Virus record (IMG/VR): IMGVR_UViG_3300020152_000019
Origin: a virus
DNA: 25,485 nt
Direction: 5' to 3' (one strand)
Both the position numbers and the translations under genes were made by a program. The stretch's first letter is position 1; each line of letters opens with the position of its first letter. The notes beneath the pieces are model-generated. The model was not told the DNA's origin, ran no database searches, and saw nothing but the letters and a program-made list of their open reading frames with translations. Positions 2,652-8,419 of the stretch are shown piece by piece.

Positions 2652-2976
2652 GGGCCTTTAGCTCATGCTGGTTAGAGCAGCGAACTTAGCAATTGATATC
2701 TAAGGACATTGTCTATGATATCTATTAATGGGTCGCTTACGTACAAGTTAACTCTGGACGTAAGTAGAAGACGATCAAATTCGGTGAAACCCCTGGAGAA
2801 ATCCGAGGCAATACCGAGCCAAGCTTCGATAGTAATATCGTTGAAGGTGTAGAGACTAGACGGTCGTCCACGAAAGTGATGGTATAGTCCAGACAGCAAA
2901 CTCGAAAGAGGTAGTGAAAACTATAGCTGTAAGCATAATTCGTTGGTGCCGTGTTCGACTCACGGAAGGCCCACCA
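2652..2976 (+). tRNA. tRNA-Ile2 (anticodon CAU, lysidine type; Met not formally excluded), split by a group I intron; exons 2652-2686 and 2934-2976
   Basis: Joined exons fold into a full cloverleaf: acceptor GGGCCTT/AAGGCCC, D-stem GCTC/GAGC, anticodon stem GCGAA/TTCGT with loop CT^CATAA, T-arm CCGTG-TTCGACT-CACGG, discriminator A, encoded CCA. C4-G69 and C5-G68 are TilS determinants. G1-C72 and the absence of GGG/CCC in the anticodon stem argue against fMet. Confidence 0.92.
2687..2933 (+). ncRNA. group I self-splicing intron (247 nt, no ORF; resembles the IC3 bacterial tRNA introns)
   Basis: Exon U precedes it and it ends in G. Conserved core elements: AAATTCGGTGAAA, AATACCGAGCCAAG, GAAGGTGTAGAGACTA, ATGGTATAGTCC. 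Helices: P2 CTTACGT/ACGTAAG, P3 GACGATC/GGTCGTC, P4 TCGGT/ACCGA, P7 GACTA/TAGTC, P8 CAC-GAAA-GTG, P9 region ACAGC/GCTGT with two GAAA-capped hairpins. IGS ATGGGTCGC at 2728-2736. Confidence 0.93.
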
Positions 2977-2992
2977 TTATCATAACAAAGAT

Positions 2993-3027
2993 ATAAGAGA
3001 AGCGACAAACGCTTCTCTTATGTTTTC
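2993..3027 (+). terminator. intrinsic terminator after the tRNA
   Basis: ATAAGAGAAGCG-ACAAA-CGCTTCTCTTAT followed by GTTTT. Confidence 0.8.
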
Positions 3028-3201: not shown

Positions 3202-3235
3202 TACACTATCACAAGGTATCCCCTGTGATAGTGTA
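3202..3235. terminator. hairpin between convergent genes, probable terminator for DHFR
   Basis: TACACTATCACA...TGTGATAGTGTA 12-bp inverted repeat. Confidence 0.7.
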
Positions 3236-7610: not shown

Positions 7611-8066
7611 GTGATTTTGTCTGACTATGATATTCAGCAGAAGCGAAAAGAGTTTGATGAAAAGAAATTCGAAGTAGAAATTGGACGTGGTTCTTATCCG
7701 ATAAATATCGTTGGTCATCCAACTCAATATTTCTTTGCGGTTGAAACTGATGAAGGAATAGAAGGTATTTGCGGATTGAATGCCAGGTTATTAAGTCTTA
7801 GAAATAGAGAAGATCCTGCTAGCGAAGCATTTTATGCTGATTTAGCAGTAGAGACTCATATTCCTGGATTCTATGCTGAAGTTCTAAATGAACTAGTTAC
7901 TTCTATTACAGTAATAGATAGTAGTGGTAACAAAGAAACAGGACTATGTCGATATCAAGATGTAGAAAAAGTAGAGACAGTTATTAACTCTAACTTTAAA
8001 CCAAATGGTAAACCCAAACTGCAATTAGTTGTGAATAATCCTAAAATAGAAGGTAAGGGAAATTAA
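7611..8066 (+). CDS. hypothetical protein
   Basis: 151 aa, AAGGAG RBS, GTG start. Confidence 0.8.
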   Translation: MILSDYDIQQKRKEFDEKKFEVEIGRGSYPINIVGHPTQYFFAVETDEGIEGICGLNARLLSLRNREDPASEAFYADLAVETHIPGFYAEVLNELVTSITVIDSSGNKETGLCRYQDVEKVETVINSNFKPNGKPKLQLVVNNPKIEGKGN

Positions 8067-8068
8067 AT

Positions 8069-8314
8069 ATGAAACACGAACAAGACGTTAAACTTCCTAC
8101 TAACCTAAAGATCAAAAACCCTGAAGCAGCATTGCAGGCTATCCTTAACATAGCTCGTGATGCTGAAGTGATCGGGCTAGCAGGAGATACTAATCTAGCT
8201 GGTGTCAGATGTGTAGTTGAGGGACTTAATCTGGGTCATTGGTATAAACTCTCTGAAGCTCTCGGTGATGATGTTTGTAAGTTCTTAGAAGAACCCGGAA
8301 CACAAGTGAGTTAA
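8069..8314 (+). CDS. hypothetical protein
   Basis: 81 aa, closely coupled to the upstream gene and followed by a terminator. Confidence 0.75.
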   Translation: MKHEQDVKLPTNLKIKNPEAALQAILNIARDAEVIGLAGDTNLAGVRCVVEGLNLGHWYKLSEALGDDVCKFLEEPGTQVS

Positions 8315-8318
8315 ACTT

Positions 8319-8356
8319 ACACTACCTCTAGCAATAGGGGTAGTGTTTTCTTTTTT
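8319..8356 (+). terminator. intrinsic terminator
   Basis: ACACTACCTCTA-GCAA-TAGGGGTAGTGT followed by TTTCTTTTTT. Confidence 0.85.
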
Positions 8357-8359
8357 CCT

Positions 8360-8400
8360 TATTTGAAATATTTATAGTTACATATATACTAAGTGATCTT
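8360..8400 (+). promoter_or_regulatory. phage promoter motif, copy 3
   Basis: TGAAATATTTATAGT-TACATATATA-CTAAGTGATCTT; 8360-8392 is identical to 15288-15320. Confidence 0.85.
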
Positions 8401-8419
8401 AATGGATAAGGAGTTTATC

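Follow-up and report, generated by a model that had tools for sequence, protein, structure and literature searches.

A group I intron between U33 and C34 of a probable tRNA-Ile2(CAU) gene in a phiKZ-like jumbo phage

The 25,485-nucleotide (nt) stretch of viral DNA held as IMG/VR record IMGVR_UViG_3300020152_000019 (the window, that is, the whole stretch analysed) carries on its plus strand a tRNA(CAU) gene at 2652-2976 in which a group I intron of 247 nt separates U33 from C34. A first-pass annotation, made from the sequence alone, had described two exons over this interval that form a cloverleaf only when joined. ARAGORN, run with introns allowed, gave the same coordinates, tRNA(cat) [2652,2976] i(36,247), with the intron after gene position 35, and the joined exons form a regular cloverleaf of 78 nt with an encoded CCA. 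Exon 1 (2652-2686, 35 nt) consists of the acceptor 5' strand GGGCCUU, the D arm, the anticodon stem 5' strand GCGAA, C32 and U33, and ends in GCGAACU. The intron, IC3-like and free of an endonuclease open reading frame (ORF), occupies 2687-2933 and ends in G. Exon 2 (2934-2976, 43 nt) starts CAUAAUUCG and holds the anticodon CAU, A37, A38, the stem strand UUCGU, the variable loop, the T arm, the acceptor 3' strand, A73 and the encoded CCA. The predicted junction of the ligated exons is GCGAACU-CAUAAUUCGU, and the mature loop would read CUCAUAA. In default mode ARAGORN found no tRNA anywhere in the window.

The insertion site can be read from alleles without the intron. A scan of viral contigs with the exon 1 tail GGTTAGAGCAGCGAACT returned 57 loci (database loci are referred to here by L numbers), and approximately 19 of these contain the same unusual tRNA body, GGGCCUyUAGCUCAUGyyGGUUAGAGCAGCGAACU...GUUCGACUC... 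In 17 of the approximately 19 the gene is uninterrupted, with the exon 1 tail running directly into CATAATTCG, so that the intron is present in a minority of alleles of this tRNA family; the comparison of alleles with and without the intron rests on loci that have no synteny to the window, not on closely related phages. The intron-less alleles L124, L129 and L169 read GCGAACT-CATAATTCG, and the sequence after this junction is identical to the first 32 nt of the window's exon 2, while 26-28 nt of exon 1 match the intron-less alleles in L124/L142. Relative to these alleles the window has exactly 247 additional bases between T(33) and C(34). The insertion point is thereby fixed at the DNA level, because a shift of one base either way fails to reproduce the intron-less sequence. 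Splice sites moved by one base were also rejected on the RNA side, since they would need an intron end other than G or would give an 8-nt anticodon loop. The split at U33/C34 that had been proposed for this gene is therefore borne out both by ARAGORN and by the intron-less alleles.

The intron has the features of a compact group I ribozyme, as the same annotation had proposed. With 601 nt of local sequence as query, the Rfam model Intron_gpI (RF00028) gave a match of 42 bits (E 2.3e-9) over model positions 1-253, which is its full length. Because 42 bits is below the curated gathering score of 50, Rfam returns no match at the locus at that score, and with default ARAGORN equally silent the gene is missed by standard annotation, as had been anticipated. 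A published survey of bacterial tRNA introns, which pointed out that the Rfam seeds include no bacterial sequence, used working scores of 18-20 bits (Williams 2020, bioRxiv 10.1101/2020.01.27.920355).

All elements of the fold lie on the plus strand, and they include the conserved core of P3-P4-P6 and P7-P8 together with its P3/P7 pseudoknot. The 5' strand of P1 (2680-2688) is made up of exon GCGA(A)CU and intron UA, with the 5' splice site after U2686 (U33), and in the local minimum-free-energy fold it pairs with 2729-2736 with one bulged A; read by hand, this pairing includes a wobble of U2686 with G2731. When 2680-2770 was folded without constraints, P1 was recovered as GCGA(A)CU-UA with UGGGUCGC, together with P2 and a hairpin extension in the P1 loop. 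The internal guide sequence AUG-GGU-CGC (2728-2736), as read from the sequence, would pair through GGU with ACU of exon 1 (P1) and through AUG with CAU of exon 2 (P10), so that the ligated ACU-CAU would lie on one continuous 6-bp helix (P1 + P10). The same AUGGGU (2728-2733) is present in the introns of L084 and L144. P2 is a hairpin of UUACGU/ACGUAA with a 15-nt loop (2737-2764), for which there is no covariation count. The P3 strands are GACGAUC (2770-2776) and GGUCGUC (2862-2868). Between them lie J3/4 (AAA), P4 (2781-2785/2813-2817) and P5 with a GAAA loop (2791-2808), which together span 2777-2817; P6 (GCC/GGU) and P6a with the conserved tandem U.U and a GUAA loop (2818-2848); and J6/7, the 5' strand of the guanosine-binding helix P7, G(A)GACUA with a bulged A, and J7/3 (2849-2861). 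P8 (CAC-GAAA-GUG, 2869-2878) is unusually short, as it is in L144 and L084, and is followed by J8/7 (AUGGUA), which contains U2880, and the P7 3' strand UAGUCC (2879-2890). The P9 domain (2893-2933) is composed of P9 (ACAGC/GCUGU), P9a (CUC-GAAA-GAG), P9b (GUAGU-GAAA-ACUAU), AAG and the terminal omega-G, G2933. The GNRA loops are thus GAAA in L5, L8, L9a and L9b and GUAA in L6a.

The extension hairpin in the P1 loop (2691-2726) contains a motif, GGACAUUGUC, in common with L084. In the window (2703-2722) and in L084 (1535-1556) it reads GGACAUYGUC followed by WRAUGAKUC, with a mini-hairpin GAC-AUY-GUC, and it is kept though the window intron is AT-rich and that of L084 GC-rich. Such conservation, in a loop that is free in other respects, hints at a contact in the tertiary structure or at a site for a protein or endonuclease.

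Related introns were retrieved by scanning IMG/VR with the IC3 J6/7-P7 block GTGTAGAGACTAGACGG, which gave at least 120 stretches; the motif sites considered number 123, of which three belong to loci retrieved before the scan. We aligned 28 non-redundant viral tRNA introns, the window's included, with MAFFT, after P2-P9 had been written onto the window sequence. Fifty-one columns are invariant across the 28 introns, and omega-G falls in a column that is all G. The proposed helices are paired in 82% of alignment cells, versus 32-40% after the partners have been slid by 1-3 columns; slid partners give covariation scores of 0.05-0.09, as against an observed 0.276, and on four of five measures none of 500 shuffles reaches the observed value. 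In P3, each of four pairs has undergone 12-17 double-sided changes, in P6a pairing holds in 94% of cells and all six counted pairs vary on both sides, and P9 (98.5% of cells) and P9b (99%) both have many compensatory changes; P6 is also among the helices with covariation support. P4 is paired in 100% of cells and is nearly invariant, with a distal pair that covaries UA/GC/UG. P7 is wholly or nearly invariant, its 5' strand being the same in all 28 introns, which is in part by construction, since this strand is in the retrieval motif; its partner UAGUCC is outside the motif. P2 and P8 score poorly only through misalignment of length-variable hairpins by MAFFT. The blocks CAAAUUCGG, CCGAGCCAAG, GUGUAGAGACUAGACGG and UAUAGUCCAG are invariant or nearly so and are also found in the seed alignment of Williams 2020; the label IC3-type, as used here, refers to these shared blocks. 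At columns that are at least 89% conserved the window differs in 4 of 81, and it is no outlier overall, the other introns differing at 0-9; three of the four deviating columns stem from the short P8 and a different L2.

Introns of this type are common in viral tRNA genes. Among the matches listed, 89 of the 123 motif sites are inside tRNA genes that ARAGORN reads as split, most of them Leu(UAA) split at 34/35, with CAU, Lys, Ser, Thr, Phe and Arg among the others (L004-L123). The split position given by ARAGORN is often off by 1-3 nt; its 'Tyr(ata)' calls were rejected as the same Leu(UAA) setting mis-split, and in L010 and L115 it reads the anticodon as UUA ('Stop'). The Azoarcus type of split, 3' of the anticodon, is found among the listed matches in the CAU tRNAs of L015, L030, L062 and L088. 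Besides the window, CAU tRNAs split at 33/34 are present in L084, L089, L106, L111, L144/L127/L386, L377 and L414/L436, and viral or metagenomic contigs contain at least eight distinct examples. Searches with a 14-mer at the 3' junction and a junction scan of metagenomes gave mostly chance matches, of which only L111, L144, L377, L386 and L414/L436 were real after filtering. A FastTree tree of the intron cores had too poor a resolution to tell whether the 33/34 CAU introns have a single origin.

One of these introns is placed exactly as that of the window. In L144 (with L127/L386) a 637-nt group I intron (Rfam 33.6 bits) interrupts a tRNA of the window type at the identical ACU-CAU site and has the same AUGGGU guide. 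Its P1 loop contains an antisense gene for a 122-amino-acid (aa) HNH endonuclease (8051-8419, minus strand; PHROGs E 6e-18, no Pfam match), located between the 5' splice site and the guide sequence. In the corresponding place the window intron has its extended P1 hairpin.

The tRNA is best read as tRNA-Ile2, judging from its sequence signatures. According to Silva et al. (2006, PMC1635315), G3 or C70 indicates tRNA-Ile(CAU), Met and fMet tRNAs usually having C3-G70; C4-G69 and C5-G68 are typical of Ile2, and fMet is marked by A11-U24 and G12-C23. The window tRNA has G3-C70, C4-G69, C5-G68, C11-G24 and U12-A23, which fits the Ile2 discriminators. It is identical to Escherichia coli ileX at 63 of 81 positions versus 56 of 82 for metT (both sequences were taken by coordinates; a BLAST search against E. 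coli genomes gave no match at that database size). Among 120 bacterial CAU tRNAs with an identical anticodon arm, G3-C70 is present in 103, C4-G69 in 85, C5-G68 in 101 and C11/U12 in 119. In a scan of bacterial genomes this arm was found in chromosomal CAU tRNAs of many phyla, and for that reason it gives no clue to the host. Related phages have tRNA arrays in which a second CAU tRNA, with either an initiator-like C1xU72 mismatch or an elongator-Met-like CAUCC/GGAUG stem, stands beside the window-type tRNA. The tRNA-Ile2(CAU) identity that had been proposed is thus the most likely one.

Two side observations concern these arrays. Companion CAU tRNAs of 74 nt in L126, L132, L140, L143, L171 and L172 combine an unusual D arm with a mismatch, C1xU72 or U1xU72, and look like phage-borne initiator-type tRNAs. 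In L142, L152 and L165 an oversized, 95-nt 'tRNA-Ile(uau)' (ARAGORN) abuts the tRNA-Ile2-like gene directly upstream, and possibly carries an insert.

The carrier is a phiKZ-like phage, and thus a jumbo phage as the first-pass annotation had supposed. Proteins of the window include a PhiKZ-type major capsid protein (PhiKZ_MCP, E 8e-46), a class I ribonucleotide reductase, a dCTP deaminase, dihydrofolate reductase (DHFR), an SLT transglycosylase and an SH3DP domain protein. By its capsid protein the closest deposited phage is Bacillus phage vB_BspM_AgentSmith (62.5% identity over 288 aa), other phiKZ-like phages having capsid identities of at most 34%. AgentSmith, the nearest cultured relative, has no match to the window tRNA or its intron. 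Megablast of the whole window against deposited phages gave only a 53-bp match. Of three flanking proteins used to look for syntenic relatives, two had no match and DHFR had only distant matches (at most 56% identity), and tblastn of the window proteins against the fetched tRNA loci revealed no synteny. ATA is used at 9.5 per 1000 codons in the ORFs of the window, or 13% of Ile codons. We found no RNA-repair protein within the 25-kb window.

In our view the element is most probably a selfish, self-splicing group I intron of IC3 type, without an ORF, that sits between U33 and C34 of the tRNA-Ile2(CAU) gene of a phiKZ-like jumbo phage. The primary transcript would fold such that the guide 5'-AUGGGU-3' pairs with ACU of exon 1 and the U33.G wobble falls where cleavage occurs; an exogenous guanosine, bound in P7, would attack after U33, the AUG of the guide would align CAU of exon 2, and G2933 would enter the G site as the exons are ligated. 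The mature tRNA would then be a substrate for host TilS, which would form lysidine at C34, and for IleRS, and would read AUA. Such an intron would be of low cost because it splices itself out, and it may be a descendant or kin of introns with homing endonucleases that target the same site. The patchy distribution, with mostly empty sites, an HNH form at the same site and an ORF-less form here, points to a classical mobile group I intron with endonuclease-free derivatives, and argues against dependence of the phage on the intron as a gate for AUA decoding or as a shield from anticodon nucleases.

Several points weigh against this interpretation. The window intron has no endonuclease gene, the ORFs that overlap it (75, 47, 44 and 50 aa) match nothing in Pfam or PHROGs, and its mobility is something we infer, since it has neither such a gene nor a close relative (best core identity 78%). 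The Ile2 identity comes from sequence signatures, and no tilS-like gene was found within the 25-kb window. The Rfam score is under the gathering score, P1 requires the bulged A, with only three exon base pairs otherwise, and the fourth of the deviating columns is U2880 in J8/7, where all 27 other introns have A. This J8/7 position contacts P1 in the group I ribozymes that have been studied, and the change could reduce splicing activity. The Rfam score, the bulged A and U2880, with the very short P8 and a truncated copy of exon 1 lying 51 nt upstream, which shows that the locus has been rearranged, would suit a decaying remnant, that is, an intron that has lost its endonuclease and is losing its activity in a tRNA pseudogene or poorly spliced gene. 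We regard this as improbable: the core helices are all fully paired through compensated sequences of their own, such as GACGAUC/GGUCGUC in P3, the deviations are few and mostly confined to P8 and L2, P10, omega-G and the GNRA loops are intact, and the exons are flawless, with the start of exon 2 the same as in intron-less alleles. It is a still slimmer prospect that the interrupted gene encodes an elongator tRNA-Met, the 'Met.2Ug' setting of Williams 2020, rather than tRNA-Ile2. The anticodon is CAU, and ARAGORN and all deposited annotations of similar phage tRNAs say tRNA-Met, although the latter are uninformative; the distinction of Met from Ile2 is, moreover, profile-based and lineage-dependent (Silva et al. 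2006, PMC1635315). Yet G3-C70 is described as excluding Met and fMet, the next two acceptor pairs are Ile2-typical, the tRNA is closer to ileX than to metT, in the 120 bacterial genomes this anticodon arm is accompanied by acceptor stems of Ile2 type, and related phage arrays already have other CAU tRNAs of initiator or elongator-Met type alongside.

The selfish reading must also be set against an adaptive one, which the first-pass annotation had put forward and which we consider very improbable, namely that splicing sets when a lysidine-competent anticodon loop appears. Placement at 33/34 means that exon ligation would create the TilS substrate C34, so that splicing would order or time lysidine formation and AUA decoding, or would shield the precursor from anticodon nucleases or premature methionylation, and the ORF-less intron would be retained for this reason and not as a relic. 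C34 and the intact anticodon loop do exist only after the exons are ligated, the ribozyme is intact despite the lack of an endonuclease gene, and ATA codons are used in the window. That use is modest, however, and the intron is missing from this tRNA family in 17 of 19 viral contigs, while the nearest cultured relative does not have the gene. Other introns at the same site, including the one with the HNH gene, are a signature of homing. A spliced tRNA would be as exposed to nucleases as any other tRNA, and there would be little to protect, since unmodified tRNA-Ile2 acts as a Met tRNA (Silva et al. 2006, PMC1635315). No new mechanism is needed for the observations.

The setting itself is on record for bacteria. 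Williams (2020, bioRxiv 10.1101/2020.01.27.920355) lists 21 bacterial settings, including Ile2.2Ug, Met.2Ug and fMet.2Ug, with Gba28.Ile2.2Ug, Sba135.Met.2Ug and Tpc1.fMet.2Ug among the names in the seed alignment, and classes all four classical settings as IC3. The combination of an Ile2 host with the fMet-type 33/34 site, which had at first not been recognised, is therefore already known in bacteria, and the 33/34 site in CAU tRNAs, with at least eight distinct cases, is well represented in sequence databases, though not in published phage examples. Bacterial Ile2.2Ug introns have the same tRNA type and the same site as the window, after anticodon-loop nucleotide 2, with U-1 and omega-G; the seed Gba28.Ile2.2Ug and the window both have a P1 U.G wobble on a GGG-containing guide and the blocks AAUUCGG, GUAGAGACUA and AUAGUCC. 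They differ in that Ile2.2Ug was catalogued in bacterial genome assemblies and the window intron is in a phiKZ-like phage, and compared with the seed the window intron is set apart by its extended P1 hairpin, its P8 of 3 bp and its branched P9, and is not closely related in sequence. The window intron is an Ile2.2Ug-setting IC3-type tRNA intron in a phiKZ-like phage, and presents no new combination or mechanism.

Two other bacterial introns invite comparison. The cyanobacterial tRNA-fMet intron (fMet.2Ug) is at the same 33/34 point in a CAU tRNA and has an IC3-type core, and the seed Tpc1.fMet.2Ug has a large P1-loop extension, as does the window. Some copies reportedly encode an endonuclease with specificity for the tRNA-fMet anticodon region (Bonocora & Shub 2001, as cited in PMC3984707), and by that account the cyanobacterial intron has a mobile endonuclease form to which L144 would be analogous in the tRNA family of the window. 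The fMet intron, however, is in an initiator tRNA (C1xA72, A11-U24), whereas the window has an elongator-type Ile2 body, and the endonuclease of L144 differs in being an HNH protein, encoded antisense in the P1 loop. The intron in the pre-tRNA-Ile(CAU) of Azoarcus sp. BH72 (Ile2.5Ug, IC3; PMC13168695) is in the same tRNA species and is likewise a small, ORF-less IC3 ribozyme of approximately 200-250 nt, with nearly identical sequences in J3/4-P4, P6, J6/7-P7 and P7'. It is inserted at 36/37, 3' of the anticodon, with P1 formed on CAU, whereas the insertion in the window is at 33/34 and CAU is in P10; in Azoarcus C34 is in exon 1 and the anticodon is unsplit, only the loop 3' of it being interrupted.

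The tRNA introns of phages in the databases resemble the window intron in being unannotated, of IC3 type and in anticodon loops, as in Atu_ph07 Leu(UAA) and the IMG/VR contigs. They differ in being, among the matches listed, mostly in Leu(UAA) at 34/35, with CAU at 33/34 a minority (the window, L084, L089, L106, L111, L144, L377 and L414). A 2014 review stated that, although phages have many tRNA genes, all of their introns are in genes for proteins (PMC3984707), and Devoto et al. (2019, PMC6784885) knew of no earlier report of phage tRNA introns and left their own unclassified. In open-access papers and preprints we found no description of a group I intron in a phage tRNA gene, which is not proof of absence. 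The annotation of the window is corrected here by a functional-looking tRNA-Ile2 gene that is hidden from default tRNA finders and from Rfam at its gathering score and is covered by spurious ORFs. Group I introns reside, largely unannotated, in phage tRNA genes on a large scale, for which the window is one more data point, and since such introns are common, phage tRNA counts and analyses of codon supplementation are systematically incomplete. The intron-less, ORF-less-intron and HNH-intron alleles of one tRNA family also provide a natural series for the study of homing into tRNA genes.

Deposited phages contain further examples of group I introns. In Agrobacterium jumbo phage Atu_ph07 (L001 527-890; MF403008.1, approximately 112.9-113.25 kb) a tRNA-Leu(UAA) gene, unannotated in GenBank, lies in an 'intergenic' gap and contains a group I intron of 278 nt that separates U34 from A35. 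Alteromonas phage vB_AmaP_AD45-P1 (L003 560-790; KF005317.1, approximately 42.4 kb) has a group I core between two hypothetical proteins, and in Pelagibacter phage HTVC120P (L002) the capsid gene, entered in the annotation as two 'capsid protein' coding sequences, is interrupted by a group I core. AgentSmith also has a strong group I intron (L294, MW749006.1 117384-117713; Rfam 81.8 bits), at a locus unrelated to the window tRNA.

The surroundings of the gene show two other features. Upstream, at 2601-2651, the truncated copy of exon 1 (GGGCCUAUAGCUCAGAGGUUAGAGCAGC) has 26 matches to exon positions 1-30, and with its continuation it forms a 9-bp hairpin, CCUAUAGCU...AGCUAUAGG (-11.6 kcal/mol). 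The copy is in none of the 19 related loci, and could be what is left of an older gene, or else a scar from the recombination event by which the tRNA or the intron arrived. Downstream, the interval that separates the tRNA from the convergent DHFR gene contains two strong hairpins, at 2993-3021 (12 bp) and 3202-3235 (15 bp). The former is directly 3' of the tRNA and terminator-like; it was scored on the minus strand, and on the plus strand it is followed by UAUGUUUU. Together the two hairpins look like the terminators of two converging transcription units.

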